The position numbers and the translations under genes were made by a program. This document shows, one piece after another, positions 20,428-64,000 of a stretch of 64,000 bases of DNA. Numbering within the stretch: position 1 is the stretch's first letter; every line of letters begins with the position of its first letter. The notes beneath the pieces were generated by a model, which saw nothing but the letters and a program-made list of their open reading frames with translations, ran no database searches and was not told the origin of the DNA. The stretch is from a virus (taxonomy: Duplodnaviria; Caudoviricetes): the IMG/VR virus record IMGVR_UViG_3300042866_001263. The stretch is one strand, 5' to 3'.

Positions 20428-20504
20428 GTCTTGGTAGCTCAGATGGATAGAGCCACTCACTTCTAATGAGTTGGTCGGGGGTTCGAGTCCCTCCCAAGAC
20501 GCCA
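20428..20504 (+). tRNA. trnR: tRNA-Arg(UCU), encoded CCA
   Basis: Cloverleaf; ACTCA-CTTCTAA-TGAGT. Confidence 0.93.
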
Positions 20505-20587
20505 GCTCCAGTGGTGGAACGGTAGACACAGCGGACTTAGAATCCGCCGCCTTAAAAAGCGTGGAAGTTCAAATCTTCTCTGGAGCA
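20505..20587 (+). tRNA. trnL: tRNA-Leu(UAG)
   Basis: GCGGA-CTTAGAA-TCCGC, long variable arm. Confidence 0.93.
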
Positions 20588-20590
20588 TTC

Positions 20591-20662
20591 GGGCGATTAA
20601 CTCAGCGGTAGAGTGGCCTCCTTACAAGTGGTAAGTCACTGGTTCGAATCCAGTATCGCCCA
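20591..20662 (+). tRNA. trnV: tRNA-Val(UAC)
   Basis: Acceptor GGGCGAT/ATCGCCC, loop CTTACAA. Confidence 0.88.
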
Positions 20663-20689
20663 TAAATTACATTAACTAAATGAATAAAA

Positions 20690-20941
20690 ATGTTATCGAT
20701 AAGATGTCGCATGTGTGGCAAGGAGCTAGAGGCTCACCCAGTCAAAACCAGATCATGTGGTTGTCCAAATATGGCAACCATTTGTGGCGATCAGATTACA
20801 GCAATTGATTTATCTGAAGTTGTATTGCTCAATTCTAACAACAATGTTAAGAAACAACCTTTGTTGTCAAATGCTGACCTAAAATACCAAGAGGAAAGAC
20901 GCAAACGAAAAGTTCGCAAACTAGATTTCGAGGTACGCTAA
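20690..20941 (+). CDS. Small Zn-ribbon-like hypothetical protein
   Basis: CRMC..CGC..C. Confidence 0.6.
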   Translation: MLSIRCRMCGKELEAHPVKTRSCGCPNMATICGDQITAIDLSEVVLLNSNNNVKKQPLLSNADLKYQEERRKRKVRKLDFEVR

Positions 20942-21141
20942 TGATCAATCTACACCAACGCTACAATCATTATCTTCATACTGATAAAAAGCATGATAGA
21001 ATAAATGAAAAAGTGATTGGATATGGTTGGACTGATGATGGAGAAAAACTTACTGGGTACTATGTCTTGACAGAAACCCACAAGTTGTTCTATAATCTAA
21101 AAGAACAATTCCAATACATGGAAGTGTGGCCGAGTGGTTGA
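20941..21141 (+). CDS. Hypothetical protein; 3' end overlaps tRNA-Ser
   Basis: ORF track; coupled to the previous stop. Confidence 0.5.
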   Translation: MINLHQRYNHYLHTDKKHDRINEKVIGYGWTDDGEKLTGYYVLTETHKLFYNLKEQFQYMEVWPSG

Positions 21142-21204
21142 AGGCACTTGTCTTGAAAACAAGCAACGTGAAAGCGTTCGTGGGTTCGAATCCTACCACT
21201 TCCG
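21120..21204 (+). tRNA. trnS: tRNA-Ser(UGA)
   Basis: CTTGT-CTTGAAA-ACAAG, long variable arm. Confidence 0.93.
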
Positions 21205-24027: not shown

Positions 24028-24101
24028 CGGAATGTAGCTCAGTTTGGTAGAGCACTCGCTTTGGGAGCGAGATGTCGCAGGTTCGAATCCTGTCATTCCG
24101 A
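24028..24101 (+). tRNA. trnP: tRNA-Pro(UGG)
   Basis: CTCGC-TTTGGGA-GCGAG. Confidence 0.94.
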
Positions 24102-24857: not shown

Positions 24858-25053
24858 AAGTCCTGGAATGACTTAAAACTTATCCTGGTGGAGTCAAATT
24901 TGACCCTATTATGCCCGTGATGGAGACACGTTAACAACCCTGGTCGGGAACCCCCTCGATGAGTTTCCAGTTTCTCTCAAAAACTGGTGGTGCGGATGGG
25001 GTTACTCCCGCCTGGTTTCTTGTTTCCAGTCAAAGAACAAGTGGCGAGCCTGC
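24858..25053 (+). ncRNA. Large structured RNA, resembles the manA RNA motif
   Basis: Hairpins AAGTC/GACTT, CGTG/CACG, CCAGT/ACTGG, GCGG/CCGC; crossing CTGG/CCAG and CTTGTT/AACAAG pairs; manA assignment is from memory only. Confidence 0.55.
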
Positions 25054-25081
25054 TCAACGGGGATTGACCATCCCCATCCCT

Positions 25082-25153
25082 GCGGACATAGTTCAGTGGT
25101 AGAACGCTATCCTTCCAAGTTAGATGTCGTCGGTTCGAATCCGATTGTCCGCT
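25082..25153 (+). tRNA. trnG: tRNA-Gly(UCC)
   Basis: Loop CTTCCAA, acceptor GCGGACA/TGTCCGC. Confidence 0.93.
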
Positions 25154-41415: not shown

Positions 41416-41447
41416 TGTATTCAAATTTACAAAGTTTGTATTATAAT
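41416..41447 (+). promoter_or_regulatory. NtcA consensus site over the -35 region of a TATAAT promoter
   Basis: TGTA-TTCAAATT-TACA (41416-41431); -10 TATAAT at 41442-41447. Confidence 0.6.
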
Positions 41448-41455
41448 TAGATATA

Positions 41456-41506
41456 CGTTCATTCGCTATTTCCAAATAGCGAACGGAAGTAAGACAACTC
41501 GGAACG
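41456..41506 (+). ncRNA. Glutamine riboswitch aptamer 1 (glnA-type)
   Basis: P1 CGTTC/GAACG, P2 TTCGCTATT/AATAGCGAA, conserved GGAAGTAAG. Confidence 0.85.
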
Positions 41507-41509
41507 GGT

Positions 41510-41678
41510 CGTTCATCTATGGAGACACTCATTCTCACATGCTTACAAGCACACTTGATTGCTGGGAGAGTTAATAAACAAGACATTCCCAGGCAAGCAA
41601 AGAATGATTTGATATGGGAGATCAAACAGATATCTCCAAAGGAGTGTAAGATAGACGCAAAGGTTGACTGAAGGAACG
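41510..41678 (+). ncRNA. Glutamine riboswitch aptamer 2 with a 130-nt P2 loop
   Basis: CGTTCA-TCTAT..ATAGA-CGCAAAGGTTGACTGAAG-GAACG. Confidence 0.7.
41519..41671 (+). CDS. 50-aa ORF nested inside aptamer 2, not in track
   Basis: METLILTCLQAHLIAGRVNKQDIPRQAKNDLIWEIKQISPKECKIDAKVD*. Confidence 0.6.
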   Translation: METLILTCLQAHLIAGRVNKQDIPRQAKNDLIWEIKQISPKECKIDAKVD

Positions 41679-41711
41679 CTCTTTAACCTAAACAACTAAG
41701 GAGAACCTCCC

Positions 41712-41861
41712 ATGTCACAAGCAACATATCGTGGTGTTCAATATGACACCGAAACAAAAAGAGAACAACTAGCAGCAAACTGGCTTCCAGTTATCCAAAA
41801 ACAAATTGAAAAACAGAATAAATTAAAAGAGGCACAACTTGCCATGGCGATGAAAATGTGA
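41712..41861 (+). CDS. DUF4278-like small protein downstream of the riboswitch, not in track
   Basis: MSQATYRGVQYDT.. (YRGVxY motif); SD AGGAG at 41699-41703. Confidence 0.75.
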   Translation: MSQATYRGVQYDTETKREQLAANWLPVIQKQIEKQNKLKEAQLAMAMKM

Positions 41862-41891
41862 TATAATATATTTCCGTGTGAAGGAAGTGAT

Positions 41892-41915
41892 GGGGAGGCG
41901 AAAGTCTCCCCTTTT
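41892..41915 (+). terminator. Intrinsic terminator
   Basis: GGGGAGGC-GAAA-GTCTCCCC followed by T4. Confidence 0.8.
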
Positions 41916-41928
41916 ATTTTGATAAAAA

Positions 41929-42474
41929 ATGAATTTTATACATCATCTAAAAGAAGCCTATCCAAAATCATCTTGCGAAAAGATGATAGAAATATTTGAC
42001 CAGAACAGTCCTTTCGCTGTAAGAGGAACTGCTGGAAAAGAATACCTTGATGACTTAGAATTAACTTTAGAAATTACAGATGCAGATTGCTATTCTGGAC
42101 TGGGAACAGCAGTTTATAAAGCAGTTGATGAATATAAAATTGTGTATCCATTAATCAATACTCACATCTCAAACTGGAAAGTAAATCCATATTGTCAGCT
42201 GATGAGATATGAACCTAACAATTATTATAGTAGGATACATTGTGAGAATGATGGAACCCCAGAATTCTCGACAAGAGTTTTTGCTTGGATGATCTATTTG
42301 AATGACATCCGAGAGGGAGGAGGAACACATTTCGTTTATCAAAATTTTACAGCACAACCAGTAGCAGGAGATCTTTATATTTGGCCTGCTCACTGGACGC
42401 ACTTTCATCATGGAGTTAATGCTCCATATGAAAAAAAGTATATTATAACTGGTTGGGTTGATTATGTGTTATAA
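41929..42474 (+). CDS. 2OG-Fe(II) oxygenase
   Basis: IHCEND, WMIYLND..GGT, WPAHWTHFHHG, KYIITGW. Confidence 0.85.
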   Translation: MNFIHHLKEAYPKSSCEKMIEIFDQNSPFAVRGTAGKEYLDDLELTLEITDADCYSGLGTAVYKAVDEYKIVYPLINTHISNWKVNPYCQLMRYEPNNYYSRIHCENDGTPEFSTRVFAWMIYLNDIREGGGTHFVYQNFTAQPVAGDLYIWPAHWTHFHHGVNAPYEKKYIITGWVDYVL

Positions 42475-60871: not shown

Positions 60872-60943
60872 GGGAGTGTCGCCTATGGGTTAAGGCCATC
60901 GCCTTATAAGCGGTAGAACTGGGTTCAAGTCCCAGCATTCCCA
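60872..60943 (+). tRNA. trnI: tRNA-Ile(UAU)
   Basis: ATCGC-CTTATAA-GCGGT; acceptor GGGAGTG/CATTCCC. Confidence 0.85.
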
Positions 60944-60995
60944 TTAGTTAGAGCAGTCGTATAAATAGTATTGATCTAACTAACTAATTAAAAAA

Positions 60996-61373
60996 ATGAT
61001 TGGTAAGTGTGTAACCTGCGAAAAAGAGTTCAAGTATATGCCGTCACAATCGACAGGTAAATACTGCTCTCGCAAATGTCAGCAAGACAACCAAGATCGT
61101 AAATATATTACAGAATGGTTGAACGGCACAAAATCTGGTATAATAAGGGGTAACTCACTCTCTGGTTATGTTAGAAGGCATTTGCTAGAAGAAGCAGAAT
61201 ACAAGTGCTCTCAGTGTAGTTGGTCTGGTGTTAATCCAGTTTCTGGTAATACAACATTAGAAATTGACCACATCGATGGCAATAGAAAAAATGCCAGTAA
61301 AGACAATCTTAGAGTATTATGTCCTAACTGTCATTCGCTAACGCCCACTTATCGAGCATTAAACATCAAGTAG
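60996..61373 (+). CDS. HNH endonuclease inside the tRNA array
   Basis: CSQC..LEIDHIDGNRKN..NLRVLCPNCHS; N-terminal CxxC..YCSRKC. Confidence 0.9.
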   Translation: MIGKCVTCEKEFKYMPSQSTGKYCSRKCQQDNQDRKYITEWLNGTKSGIIRGNSLSGYVRRHLLEEAEYKCSQCSWSGVNPVSGNTTLEIDHIDGNRKNASKDNLRVLCPNCHSLTPTYRALNIK

Positions 61374-61445
61374 CTCCTTTAGCAATCTGGCGAATGCACC
61401 GAACTCATAATTCGGCTAAGGTGGGTTCGATCCCCTCAAGGAGCA
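61373..61445 (+). tRNA. tRNA with CAU anticodon (elongator Met or lysidine Ile2)
   Basis: CCGAA-CTCATAA-TTCGG; no initiator GGG/CCC stem. Confidence 0.85.
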
Positions 61446-61450
61446 CCTAC

Positions 61451-61523
61451 GCCCGTGTAGTCCAGCGGAAGAGACAGAGGACTTAAAATCCTTCCAGGGT
61501 CGGTTCGAATCCGACCACGGGCA
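61451..61523 (+). tRNA. trnL: tRNA with UAA anticodon (Leu) and a short variable loop
   Basis: GAGGA-CTTAAAA-TCCTT; 5-nt variable region; 73 nt. Confidence 0.85.
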
Positions 61524-61567
61524 TTCCTGTGTAAATAGTAACAGGAAATTTTGAGAGATCAAATGTA

Positions 61568-61849
61568 ATGACAACAATTAAGTACACCATCACTCGAAAG
61601 CATGTCTTTGTTGACAACGAACCAGTGTTGATGTATTATATTGAAAATATGCCATTCGCATTTGATCTTTTAGATCAAGATGAAAAACATGACAAATGGA
61701 TTTTGGCTGAAGCAGCACTAAATCAAGAATATACTATGGAAGATATCTTCCGTTATTCTGACTATCTTATCGCTGAAGAATGCCACCCAGTTTTGTTTGA
61801 ATTGCCCTTAGTTAATCCTGAAGTTTTGCCAGATGAACCAGTTTCTTGA
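61568..61849 (+). CDS. Conserved hypothetical protein
   Basis: ORF with late promoter GTAAATA about 61531-61537. Confidence 0.6.
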   Translation: MTTIKYTITRKHVFVDNEPVLMYYIENMPFAFDLLDQDEKHDKWILAEAALNQEYTMEDIFRYSDYLIAEECHPVLFELPLVNPEVLPDEPVS

Positions 61850-62357
61850 ATACCTTGAAGGCACCTTTGCTAACAAACATCAAGCACAGTCTCATCCTAC
61901 TCGTTATGCTCACATTCGTGTAAGTCATCGTCGTATTGGTGAGAAACGGTTTTATGGTGAACAGGCATATAACTATCTTCTAAATAACCCATATCGTCAG
62001 TTTGTAATTGACGTTGAGGTTGAGAAGGGGCAATTTCGTCTCAAAAATTATGAGATTGAAGATCCTAAACGTTTTGCGGAATGTAAAGATCTCGAACTCA
62101 TTACGGACGACATCTTGACATATCGCCAGGGTTGCGATATAATTATTACACAGACTGGACCAGAAATGTTCCAGGGTGGTACATCTACTTGTGAGTGTTG
62201 GGTTGATTGGCAAGGCATAAAAACCTATGTTCAAAATGAAGTCACACTCACAAAAGATGAATACCATGTAGTTGATAAAGGACTACATGCTGAAACCCAC
62301 GAAAAGATTTGGGGTTCCGATTGGGGAGCGTTCAAATTTGTTAGAATGCCCTTGTAG
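61833..62357 (+). CDS. cpcT: T-type phycobiliprotein lyase (CpcT/CpeT)
   Basis: GTFANKHQA, EQAY..PYRQ, GCDI, DKG..IWGS..FKF. Confidence 0.85.
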   Translation: MNQFLEYLEGTFANKHQAQSHPTRYAHIRVSHRRIGEKRFYGEQAYNYLLNNPYRQFVIDVEVEKGQFRLKNYEIEDPKRFAECKDLELITDDILTYRQGCDIIITQTGPEMFQGGTSTCECWVDWQGIKTYVQNEVTLTKDEYHVVDKGLHAETHEKIWGSDWGAFKFVRMPL

Positions 62358-62419
62358 CTCAGTGGTAGAGCAGCGGTTTTGTAAACCGCTGGTCGTCTGT
62401 TCGAATCAGATCGGGGGCT
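62348..62419 (+). tRNA. trnT: tRNA-Thr(UGU)
   Basis: GCGGT-TTTGTAA-ACCGC. Confidence 0.92.
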
Positions 62420-62422
62420 CTT

Positions 62423-62587
62423 GAAAGGACTGGAAATATTCGGTTCTTTCTCGAAATCCTAAGTTTTCTTAGGTCGGGGATTTGATCACCCCCGCTCGTA
62501 GGAACCAAAACCTCTCCTTGGTCTTAGTATTCTGTGTCCAAGTGAAGTAAAGAGGGGGGCTTAAGGTGATGCTCCCCCCTCCTACCA
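62423..62587 (+). ncRNA. Unassigned multi-stem RNA between tRNA-Thr and tRNA-Ala
   Basis: Six complementary stems; the last domain is closed by GTAGGA/TCCTAC and ends in CA. Confidence 0.45.
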
Positions 62588-62590
62588 TTA

Positions 62591-62663
62591 GGGGAATTAG
62601 CTCAGTTGGTAGAGCACCTGCTTTGCAAGCAGGCTGTCAGGAGTTCGAGTCTCCTATTCTCCA
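62591..62663 (+). tRNA. trnA: tRNA-Ala(UGC)
   Basis: CCTGC-TTTGCAA-GCAGG. Confidence 0.95.
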
Positions 62664-62682
62664 TGAGTTTACTATAACTCTT

Positions 62683-62838
62683 ATGTCTCTCATTTCAAAA
62701 CCTGACCGAGATCTCGCCATCGAGGCGCTAGATTTTTACCTTTTCAATAAACAGTATGACATCAGTGAAACAAAAAGAATGGAAATCAACGCCCTTCTTA
62801 ATTGGCTCAAACTGGAAAATTTCAAACATGAAAATTAA
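62683..62838 (+). CDS. Small hypothetical protein
   Basis: ATG 62683 (MSLISKPDR); the tracked start runs through tRNA-Ala. Confidence 0.55.
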   Translation: MSLISKPDRDLAIEALDFYLFNKQYDISETKRMEINALLNWLKLENFKHEN

Positions 62839-62998
62839 TCTCTGGTATTGCGTTGAAATGAAGCAATGGCGCTGGTCTCTTACAGATGATCATCGTCCGA
62901 TTGTTCGCCAAGAAAGCGGACAACGACCACATCTACGTGATGCTATGAATGACATAGCAAATACTGTAGAATATATGATGGACAGTCAACAGTCCTGA
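62828..62998 (+). CDS. Small hypothetical protein
   Basis: ATG 62828 (MKINLWYC..QWRWSL). Confidence 0.55.
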   Translation: MKINLWYCVEMKQWRWSLTDDHRPIVRQESGQRPHLRDAMNDIANTVEYMMDSQQS

Positions 62999-63006
62999 TT
63001 TTTCAT

Positions 63007-63078
63007 TCCCCTATAGCTCAACGGCAGAGCAGAGAGCTGTTAACTCTAAGGTTCCTCGTTCGAATCGAGGTGGGGGAG
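63007..63078 (+). tRNA. trnN: tRNA-Asn(GUU)
   Basis: Loop CTGTTAA. Confidence 0.92.
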
Positions 63079-63081
63079 TTT

Positions 63082-63163
63082 GGGTAGGTGTCCGAGTGGT
63101 TAATGGAAACGGACTGTAAATCCGTCGGCTCCGCCTTCGGGGGTTCGAATCCCTCCCTGCCCA
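63082..63163 (+). tRNA. trnY: tRNA-Tyr(GUA)
   Basis: ACGGA-CTGTAAA-TCCGT, long arm. Confidence 0.92.
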
Positions 63164-63351
63164 TATAAATATACACACAATGGTGAACATCATGTCTAAC
63201 TTCAGCAAGCAAATTGAGATTAAGATTAGCGATTGCCGCCAGGATATCGCCAAATCCCTCCTGCTTGCTAATATGTAACAATCGATACATAAGCAAGATT
63301 TATCAGGGGGGCAGTTGACAAAACCGCCCCCCTATTTTATTGTAGATACAT

Positions 63352-63385
63352 CGGTGGGGGATCCACCACGGTGGGGGATCCACCA
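63352..63385 (+). repeat. Perfect 17-bp tandem duplication CGGTGGGGGATCCACCA
   Basis: Read directly. Confidence 0.9.
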
Positions 63386-63408
63386 GCACCTTGAAAATTT
63401 AATCTCAT

Positions 63409-63481
63409 GGGTCTGTAACTCAGTTGGTAGAGTAGCGGGCTTTTAACCTGTAAGTCGTCGGTTCGAGCCCGACCAGACCCA
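63409..63481 (+). tRNA. trnK: tRNA-Lys(UUU)
   Basis: Loop CTTTTAA. Confidence 0.93.
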
Positions 63482-63484
63482 TTT

Positions 63485-63556
63485 GACCCTATAGTGAAGC
63501 GGTTATCACGCCACCCTGTCACGGTGGTATCACGAGTTCAAATCTCGTTAGGGTCG
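63485..63556 (+). tRNA. trnD: tRNA-Asp(GUC)
   Basis: CCACC-CTGTCAC-GGTGG. Confidence 0.93.
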
Positions 63557-63604
63557 TTGCTACGCTGCCTGTGGAGTGCCCCTCTTTGGCGGTTGTAGCA
63601 TCAA

Positions 63605-63676
63605 GTTCCTATCGACTAGCGGTTAGGTCACCACCCTTTCAAGGTGGCAGCACGGGTTCGAATCCCGTTAGGAATA
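63605..63676 (+). tRNA. trnE: tRNA-Glu(UUC)
   Basis: CCACC-CTTTCAA-GGTGG. Confidence 0.93.
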
Positions 63677-63680
63677 CTAT

Positions 63681-63752
63681 GGAACCGTAGCTCAGCGGTA
63701 GAGCACTCGGCTGATAACCGAGCGGTCACAAGTTCAAATCTTGTCGGTTCCA
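63681..63752 (+). tRNA. trnI: tRNA-Ile(GAU)
   Basis: CTCGG-CTGATAA-CCGAG. Confidence 0.94.
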
Positions 63753-63756
63753 CCTT

Positions 63757-63843
63757 GGAAGATTGGCTGAGAGGTCTAAAGCAACGGTTTGCTAAACCGT
63801 CGAAGGATTAATCCTTCCGTTGGTTCGAATCCAACATCTTCCG
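63757..63843 (+). tRNA. trnS: tRNA-Ser(GCU)
   Basis: ACGGT-TTGCTAA-ACCGT, long arm. Confidence 0.93.
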
Positions 63844-63931
63844 TAGGACTCCAGCAATGTGCTTGCTAGGATATAAAAGACTGACGCCTCCCTCTGCAGA
63901 AAGAGTAACCATCAGGTCAGCGTCCATGTAA

Positions 63932-64000
63932 TCTGAGGTCGCCAAGTGGTAAGGCAGCGGGTTTTGGTCCCGCTATTCGTGGGTTCGAATCCTACTCTCA
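63932..64000 (+). tRNA. trnQ: tRNA-Gln(UUG), truncated by the window end
   Basis: GCGGG-TTTTGGT-CCCGC; T arm complete, acceptor 3' strand cut off. Confidence 0.88.

Follow-up and report, generated by a model that had tools for sequence, protein, structure and literature searches.

A protein gene nested in a predicted composite glutamine sensor of a lake cyanophage

Riboswitches are usually taught as non-coding leaders that act on the genes downstream of them. Coding sequences closed in by a long-range RNA helix are familiar from other contexts, namely from the loops of group I and group II introns that carry homing-endonuclease or maturase genes, and from the tag open reading frame (ORF) of tmRNA; these are ribozymes or tmRNA, not metabolite sensors, and we know of no such ORF that shares its start or stop codon with elements of a ligand-binding core. 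A further embedded ORF is mgtL, in the leader of the Salmonella mgtA gene, which is a 17-codon sensor of proline supply and whose peptide, to our knowledge, has no role of its own. Here we describe a locus of a T4-like cyanophage of lake water, found in a stretch of 64,000 nucleotides (nt) (IMG/VR record IMGVR_UViG_3300042866_001263; the whole stretch is referred to as the window), in which a 50-codon ORF is nested in the second of two units that resemble the glutamine-I (glnA) riboswitch, upstream of a short gene that we call the YRG protein gene. The features of the locus are collected in Table 1.

In terms of RNA elements, the locus is to be compared with the glutamine-I riboswitch (RF01739), and especially with the gifB/IF17 leader of Synechocystis (PMC6212724; PMC2864571). 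It shares with this class the CGUUCA...GAACG strands of helix P1, a helix P2 that directly follows CGUUCA, the two E-loop halves (ACGGAAGUA and GAAG) and a G-C linchpin between the joining strand J2/3 and the base after P1; in the published structure a G of J2/3 pairs with the C after P1 (G23-C60; Ren 2015 as cited in PMC6212724). As in Synechocystis, the sensor precedes a DUF4278/YRG gene, and a helix directed against the Shine-Dalgarno (SD) sequence starts at the linchpin C; in gifB, glutamine turns translation on, probably by freeing this C from the anti-SD helix (PMC6212724). Unlike in the known glutamine-I riboswitch, the parts are here split over two cores that have a common helix P3 and exchanged linchpins, a protein gene lies in one of the P2 loops, which measures 130 nt, and the type is found in phages only. 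Tandem glnA RNAs have been reported as an arrangement for more digital control (Weinberg 2010, PMC2864571). The present locus likewise has two glnA-like units head to tail, a few bases apart, but covariation points to pairing across the units, as opposed to two self-contained aptamers.

The closest logic in print is that of the mgtA leader of Salmonella, in which the short ORF mgtL is embedded in a Mg2+ riboswitch (Park et al. 2010 and Cromie et al. 2006, as cited in PMC6460261). In the account cited there, as in our locus, the ORF lies inside a ligand-sensing leader, its codons double as pairing partners of the riboswitch, and there is an interplay between translation and folding. The two systems are nevertheless different in kind. 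Firstly, the ORF described here encodes a protein of 50 amino acids (aa) on which purifying selection acts and for which a fold is predicted, and it has no conserved run of regulatory codons. Secondly, it is situated in a helix loop of the aptamer core itself. An earlier note on this DNA, made from the letters alone, had called the combination of riboswitch and leader-ORF logic one that its author had not seen described; the mgtA leader is a published case of it. In the literature searched in full text (Ames & Breaker 2011 and Ren 2015 excepted), neither a gene within a glutamine aptamer nor pairing across the units was found to be described, and the nested gene was not found to be mentioned in Weinberg 2010 (PMC2864571) or in the cyanophage genome papers searched.

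The second unit of the window begins with CGTTCA (41510-41515), and the ATG of the nested ORF (41519-41521) contributes its A and T to the 5' strand of P2(2), a stem of 5 base pairs (bp) that encloses 130 nt. The stop codon TGA (41669-41671) lies inside GACTGAAGG; its T is the final base of GGTTGACT, and its G and A open the GAAG. The complete 50-codon ORF with its start in P2 and its stop in a conserved motif had been correctly described in the earlier note. The features that characterize glnA RNAs are divided between the two units. The P1 strands CGUUC/GAACG and the P2 that adjoins CGUUCA are each present twice in sequence, and both P2(1) and P2(2) covary. On the other hand, the E-loop halves GGAAGUA and GAAG, which surround P3 within one aptamer of RF01739, are absent as a pair from either unit alone: unit 1 has GGAAGUA without GAAG, unit 2 has GAAG with CGCAAA in place of GGAAGUA, and only the composite possesses both. 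The split is identical in the phage S-CREM1, whose equivalent second unit has a plain hairpin and no insert. The long-range Watson-Crick linchpin of RF01739 is present as well, again across the units. Judged by these sequence elements, no single unit passes as a member of RF01739 and the composite alone does. An Rfam scan of the window reports the first unit only (41454-41510, 34.4 bits vs an RF01739 gathering score of 35), as the second is missed because of the insert; the two units of S-CREM1 score 33.5 and 20.4 bits.

The argument for a single structure comes from covariation between the units. The third base of J1 and the base after the last GGAACG are C-G in 53 unique loci and G-C in another 29, no locus departing from this pairing, and in 25 sensors that lack the ORF the same linchpin is GC in 13 and CG in 12. 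The C of J2 faces the G after the first GGAACG in 79/82 unique loci and in all 25 ORF-less sensors. The 8-mer after AGUA of unit 1 can pair in antiparallel orientation with the 8-mer before GAAG of unit 2, and the end pairs of this shared P3 covary: across relatives, one end is U-A, A-U or G-C and the other is A-U, G-U or C-G. Pair 8/1 occurs as AU (10), GC (10) and UA (5), and pair 1/8 changes from A-U to C-G in phage S-SRM01. Aligning the 25 ORF-less sensors gives 96.6% pairing for the cross-unit structure, and 10 pairs show changes on both sides; none of 500 shuffles equals this level, and slid controls drop to 29-45%. For same-unit alternatives the linchpins are paired in 48% and P3 hairpins within the 8-mer in 20%. 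The cross-unit pairs of the window are G41486-C41679, G41507-C41658 and AGACAACU with GGUUGACU, the latter at 7/8 positions. The covarying long-range pairs thus show, on comparative grounds, that the units are cross-paired into one structure, and 41456-41679 is probably one composite glnA (glutamine-I) type sensor in which two cores share P3 and exchange their linchpins. Both units postulated in the earlier note as aptamers 1 and 2 are present, but as interlocked halves of one sensor and not as independent aptamers. The data suggest that many phage tandem glutamine riboswitches are single interlocked structures, which would change the way such riboswitches are modelled, searched for and tested; the second core is missed by the Rfam model.

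The second part of the argument concerns the nested ORF itself. The layout recurs well beyond chance expectation: more than 119 IMG/VR contigs contain an exact 15-mer that spans its start, and where the 3' half is present as well, a full ORF of 50-57 codons is kept in 99 of 101 loci. The two broken loci (L055 and L078) have a premature stop after 20 and 17 codons, respectively, with the RNA elements retained. Among the three cultured phages that carry the nested insert, one has an in-frame indel of 3 nt and one reads five codons further for want of the stop. The latter is S-SRM01 (L003, 628-805), in which the nested TGA is lost (GACGGAAGG) and the opposite P3 base is changed from A to C, so that the pair is preserved. 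A blind sample was obtained by scanning with the 3' half of the sensor only, so that the ORF did not drive the selection; it comprised 45 unique sensors with a long loop (138-195 nt) and 26 with a short hairpin. Of the 45 long loops, 44 have an open frame through GAC GCA AAR, as compared to 1/45 and 0/45 for the other frames, and an in-frame ATG is found within 10 nt of CGTTCA in all 45. Within the lake clade the median dN/dS is 0.28, the entropy at codon positions 1, 2 and 3 is 0.92, 0.53 and 1.23 bits, respectively, and all indels of lake-type ORFs are multiples of 3. No conserved RNA structure was detected inside the nested ORF (alifold -0.3 vs -0.11 +/- 0.33 for shuffled columns). Conservation at the codon level, which the earlier note had named as a check on its proposal, is thus found, and the comparison of related sequences shows the nested ORF to be a genuine protein gene under purifying selection. 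None of the cores GGAG, GAGG and AGGA occurs within the 20 nt that precede its ATG. Metatranscriptome contigs of relatives (85-95% identical) from two libraries cover 41505-41734; as DNA carry-over is possible, they were not counted as expression, and the parts that these contigs leave uncovered carry no weight either way.

The nested peptide has features that go beyond those of a leader peptide. In a 50-sequence alignment of lake-type relatives (A3), M1, E2, C8, C43 and the C-terminal D-A-K-x-D are invariant, and marine peptides at the equivalent position have an N-terminal and a C-terminal Cys each. A profile search with the nested peptide returned 425 protein clusters, none with a Pfam domain; Pfam itself gave nothing at E <= 1, the ESM Atlas gave no usable match, and a search of cellular genomes gave no match. 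The window peptide resembles PHROG 504 weakly (E 0.005, 17.5 bits; residues 6-48 on positions 10-52 of the 53-position profile), and the marine nested peptides match the same family with E values of 1e-7 to 1e-16. AlphaFold2 predicts helices at residues 8-20 and 25-38 (mean pLDDT 82.9), a model for which Foldseek found only generic helical-hairpin matches with E > 1 in PDB and AlphaFold/Swiss-Prot. By this model and the conserved residues, the product is predicted to be a folded helical hairpin protein with two Cys, and more than a leader peptide. A leader peptide of the mgtL type would be expected to have stalling codons and an unconserved sequence, in contrast to the purifying selection and the predicted fold found here. 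The suggestion in the earlier note that the peptide may have a function of its own is therefore strengthened, as it is a selected gene whose conserved features include the two Cys. A complex prediction with the YRG protein gave a score of 0.02, which counts neither way. Attenuation at Gln codons was considered and rejected, as the marine families lack Gln codons 10 and 12; an NblA-like function, prompted by the size of the peptide and the nitrogen context, found no supporting Pfam match. Several 50-aa relatives (P0003, P0030, P0051, P0056, P0071, P0082, P0105) are labelled 'indole-3-glycerol phosphate synthase' by JGI, a name that looks like an annotation error because a 50-aa helical hairpin cannot be that enzyme.

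With 45 long against 26 short loops in the blind sample, the nested-gene state is the majority state of this sensor type. Another gene occupies the first P2 loop, a plain hairpin in the window, in some 30 lake relatives; the same is true of the marine model phages P-HM2 and P-SSM4. These two phages have genes inside both P2 loops, and the three genes concerned are PHM2_179, PHM2_180 and PHM2_181 in P-HM2, and PSSM4_169.2, 169.3 and 170 in P-SSM4, i.e. T4-like gene clusters 429-431. The layout of the first-P2 gene is CGTTCA-TCCT-ATG, 60-72 codons and ATAGGA-CG[G/C]AAGTA, and its 60-72 aa product has a hydrophobic, signal-peptide-like N-terminus (MTKALLLLAWVPLLS...) and two conserved Cys. The marine first-P2 proteins match PHROG 6471; an alignment that runs from Cys to Cys (hhalign probability 47%, E 2e-4) is suggestive of a possible remote relationship with the PHROG 504 peptides. 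These two orphan cyanophage families thus acquire a regulatory context, and both probably have a part in how the phage deals with the nitrogen status of its host. Viral contigs of lakes and oceans commonly show the layout, and its presence in model phages whose hosts are in culture makes the idea directly testable.

How could the sensor and its inner gene work together? The nested ATG adjoins the junction, and the last five codons (D-A-K-V-D) and the stop codon are at the same time J2, P3b and the first bases of the E-loop. On the downstream side, the YRG gene has the SD AAGGAG 8 nt before its ATG, and this SD is covered by a predicted 7-bp CUCUUUA:UAAGGAG helix whose first base is C41679, so that C41679 doubles as linchpin partner and first base of the anti-SD helix. 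We infer, after the gifB model (PMC6212724), that this helix may act as the expression platform; the CTCTTTA...TAAGGAG pattern is seen in most lake relatives. Initiation at 41519 would require a single-stranded junction, and a ribosome finishing at 41669-71 would cover P3b, the E-loop, outer P1 and the linchpin. Since the ribosome would occupy all these elements, nested translation and the folded sensor would exclude each other on one RNA. The earlier note had already proposed that ribosomes crossing aptamer 2 would unfold or time it, and the unfolding is supported, the start, the last codons and the stop all being sensor RNA. Bound glutamine would stabilise the fold and bury the nested ATG, and it would draw C41679 out of the anti-SD helix, thereby switching the YRG gene on. 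At low glutamine the fold would be loose, the nested gene would be translated, and its ribosomes would keep the sensor open.

We give a probability of roughly 0.55 to the statement as a whole, i.e. a real gene, an interlocked sensor, mutual exclusion and reciprocal output. The reciprocal output taken by itself (high glutamine: nested gene off and YRG gene on; low glutamine: the reverse) is a tentative proposal, and we are inclined to rate its chances at somewhat under even. We also speculate, with no better odds, that the arrangement could be a phage nitrogen toggle, in which two domain-swapped aptamers would drive two genes in opposite directions, and which would be repeated in the other P2 loop of many marine cyanophages including P-HM2 and P-SSM4. 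A protein gene here forms part of the aptamer itself, which would couple ligand sensing to translation; one sensor could in this way produce opposite outputs, or a threshold that depends on translation.

Several observations speak against this picture. The bases of P1 never vary in relatives, which is why covariation can not fix the P1 partner and why a nested P1 (41456-60 with 41674-78 plus 41502-06 with 41510-14) and tandem P1 helices with kissing contacts are indistinguishable by this method; nearest-neighbour energies favour the nested scaffold over the tandem one (-18.9 vs -12.3 kcal/mol). Without constraints, the minimum-energy fold has another structure (-71.9 vs -60.0 kcal/mol), both units score under the RF01739 gathering threshold, and P2(2) has just 5 bp in the window. 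In support of this stem, pairs 1-5 of P2(2) are paired in 100, 100, 100, 95 and 89% of 114 unique ORF-bearing loci, and the sets TCTAT/ATAGA, TCCCA/TGGGA and TCCTCA/TGAGGA are compensatory, the bases concerned being likewise coding, for the start codon and for Ile/Trp-Asp near the C-terminal end; covariation, which the earlier note had proposed to look for in both helices, is thus seen in P2 while P1 is invariant. With a ribosome terminating at 41669-71 the anti-SD strand would be occupied too, and the YRG gene could thus be turned on and not off. Finally, 26 unique sensors have no nested gene at all, so that the gene is not needed for sensing.

The last observation leads to the alternative that the gene is a passenger, in other words that the P2 loop tolerates insertions and a small phage gene settled there with no selected regulatory link, the sensor folding on RNAs that are not translated. 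The plain hairpins in those same-type sensors, the variation of loop length between 138 and 195 nt, the high diversity of the peptides and the ability of either P2 loop to host genes are all in line with this possibility. However, one would expect a free passenger to lie at any place in the loop and to have an SD and a stop of its own, whereas the ATG is within 10 nt of CGTTCA in every family, including all 45 blind-sample loci, and the frame always runs via J2 and P3b to a stop built of sensor bases. Moreover, the physical exclusion between ribosome and fold does not depend on how the gene originated. We consider a passenger rather unlikely.

A second alternative is positive coupling, in which the nested gene would act as an upstream ORF. 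A ribosome stopped at 41669-71 would unwind outer P1 and the anti-SD strand at 41679-85 and thus open the YRG SD; the two genes would co-vary and the sensor would mainly gate the nested ATG. The geometry is suitable, as the stop codon is 8 nt before the anti-SD strand and 41 nt before the next ATG, a ribosome covers about 12-15 nt 3' of its A site, and the anti-SD:SD helix is itself predicted. But S-SRM01 has lost the stop and its ORF is five codons longer, so the exact placement of the stop is not essential, and sensors without a nested gene still precede the same YRG genes. In addition, the published logic of the class is a direct glutamine-ON effect on the SD (PMC6212724). On balance, positive coupling appears unlikely.

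The earlier note had favoured a serial relay: aptamer 1, acting independently, would hide or free an SD (GGAACGGG) for translation of the nested peptide, and ribosomes would then time an independent aptamer 2. It is true that GGAACGGG is 11 nt before the ATG and within a P1 strand, and that unit 1 alone approaches the Rfam threshold with the score given above. Yet the shared P3 and the crossed linchpins contradict such a relay: the units are cross-paired into one structure, each of them without half of the E-loop, and there is thus no separate aptamer 1 that could decide first. As for GGAACGGG, it has no SD core and is conserved as P1 strand plus linchpin G, and upstream of the homologous ORFs nested in the first P2 of relatives nothing of the kind is present. 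A relay is therefore very improbable. That the insert is non-coding, i.e. a structured expansion of P2 or a chance ORF, as could be imagined from the other 50-aa ORFs nearby on both strands of the window and from a region that folds better than shuffled sequence (z = -3.96), is already contradicted by the comparative data, namely by frame-specific openness, in-frame indels, dN/dS, the invariant Cys and the alifold result for the insert, and can be practically dismissed.

Table 1. Features of the composite sensor, its operon and related loci (positions refer to the window unless a locus is named)
Feature	Position	Strand	Basis or remark
CGTTC(1), outer-core P1 5' strand	41456-41460	+	sequence, cmscan alignment; proposed partner GAACG 41674-41678
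CGTTC(1), alternative partner GAACG	41502-41506	+	sequence
P2(1), plain 9-bp hairpin TTCGCTATT / AATAGCGAA, loop TCCA	41462-41483	+	helix covaries in relatives
J(1) CGGAAGTA, 5' E-loop half	41484-41491	+	G41486 is linchpin G, partner C41679
P3a AGACAACT, 5' strand of shared P3	41492-41499	+	pairs with 41662-41669 at 7/8 positions
GAACG(1) + loop GGT + CGTTC(2), proposed inner P1 hairpin	41502-41514	+	helix invariant, pairing inferred
G41507, linchpin partner of C41658	41507	+	G faces C in relatives
P2(2) 5' strand TCTAT	41516-41520	+	contains A, T of start codon
Nested gene, 50 codons + TGA, 50 aa	41519-41671	+	ORF list, coding signature in relatives
P2(2) 3' strand ATAGA	41651-41655	+	also codes part of Ile45 and Asp46
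J(2) CGCAAA, without E-loop GUA	41656-41661	+	C41658 is linchpin C; codes part of Asp-Ala-Lys
P3b GGTTGACT, 3' strand of shared P3	41662-41669	+	codes Val-Asp and T of stop codon
GAAG (3' E-loop half) + GAACG(2) (outer P1 3' strand) + linchpin C41679	41670-41679	+	sequence, covariation
Promoter-like TTCAAA-16-TATAAT	41420-41447	+	10/12 matches
Putative expression platform: CTCTTTA 41679-41685 can pair with TAAGGAG 41697-41703	41679-41703	+	constrained fold
YRG protein gene, 49 aa (MSQATYRGVQYD...), DUF4278/IF17-like	41712-41861	+	ORF list, PHROGs 545 and 5049 match
Intrinsic terminator-like hairpin + T run, end of small operon	41892-41911	+	sequence
tRNA genes	20428-21204, 24028-24101, 25082-25153, 60872-64000		RNA scan
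First-P2 gene loci	L019: 5616-5813; L022, L028, L035 and about 30 others	- (L019)	
First-P2 gene, P-HM2	L222: 60-263		
First-P2 gene, P-SSM4	L223: 56-256		

The small operon around the sensor has a simple architecture. The transcript is predicted to start at about 41454-41456, so that the RNA would begin with the sensor. Where relatives have a TAnAAT box, it mostly ends 7-10 nt upstream of CGTTCA. An NtcA-type palindrome (GTA-N8-TAC, 41417-41430) ends 11 nt before the -10 box, and the same pattern recurs no more than 80 nt ahead of the sensor in 151 of 168 unique related loci, mostly starting 58-62 nt before CGTTCA. Based on this motif, the operon is probably also under host NtcA control. The YRG protein gene follows the sensor in nearly all relatives. 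Its description as DUF4278-like, made in the earlier note, is correct; the match to Pfam DUF4278 (PF14105; 14.4 bits, E 0.05) is under the gathering threshold of 25.3, and the likeness is limited to the N-terminal YRG motif and does not extend over the whole domain. A further, strong promoter-like site (TTGCCA-17-TATAAT with a TG extension, 11/12 matches, 41839-41867) lies within the last part of the YRG gene, some 25 nt ahead of the terminator hairpin, and would yield only a very short RNA. The next gene (41929-42474) encodes a 2-oxoglutarate-Fe(II) oxygenase (PF13640, E 1.9e-9; PHROG 61).

The nearest cultured relatives of the window are the Kyanoviridae phages DSL-LC02, DSL-LC03 and S-SRM01, and the window DNA is present in lake metagenomes. 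A wcaG RNA is found at 24959-25055 (100.9 bits), along with three groups of tRNA genes (at about 20.4-21.2, 24.0-25.2 and 60.9-64.0 kb) that together number at least 19; a wcaG RNA and many tRNAs are typical for T4-like cyanophages. A search of 185,579 species genomes with the 3' half of the sensor gave six matches, all of them on contigs of metagenome-assembled genomes (MAGs) or single-amplified genomes, which are probably phage DNA, so the sensor type appears to be essentially phage-specific. Phage-type sensors occur on short contigs in MAGs assigned to Acetobacteraceae, Dehalococcoidia, Bacteroidota and Acidimicrobiaceae (L224, L226, L227 and L228), and these contigs are probably mis-binned cyanophage DNA.

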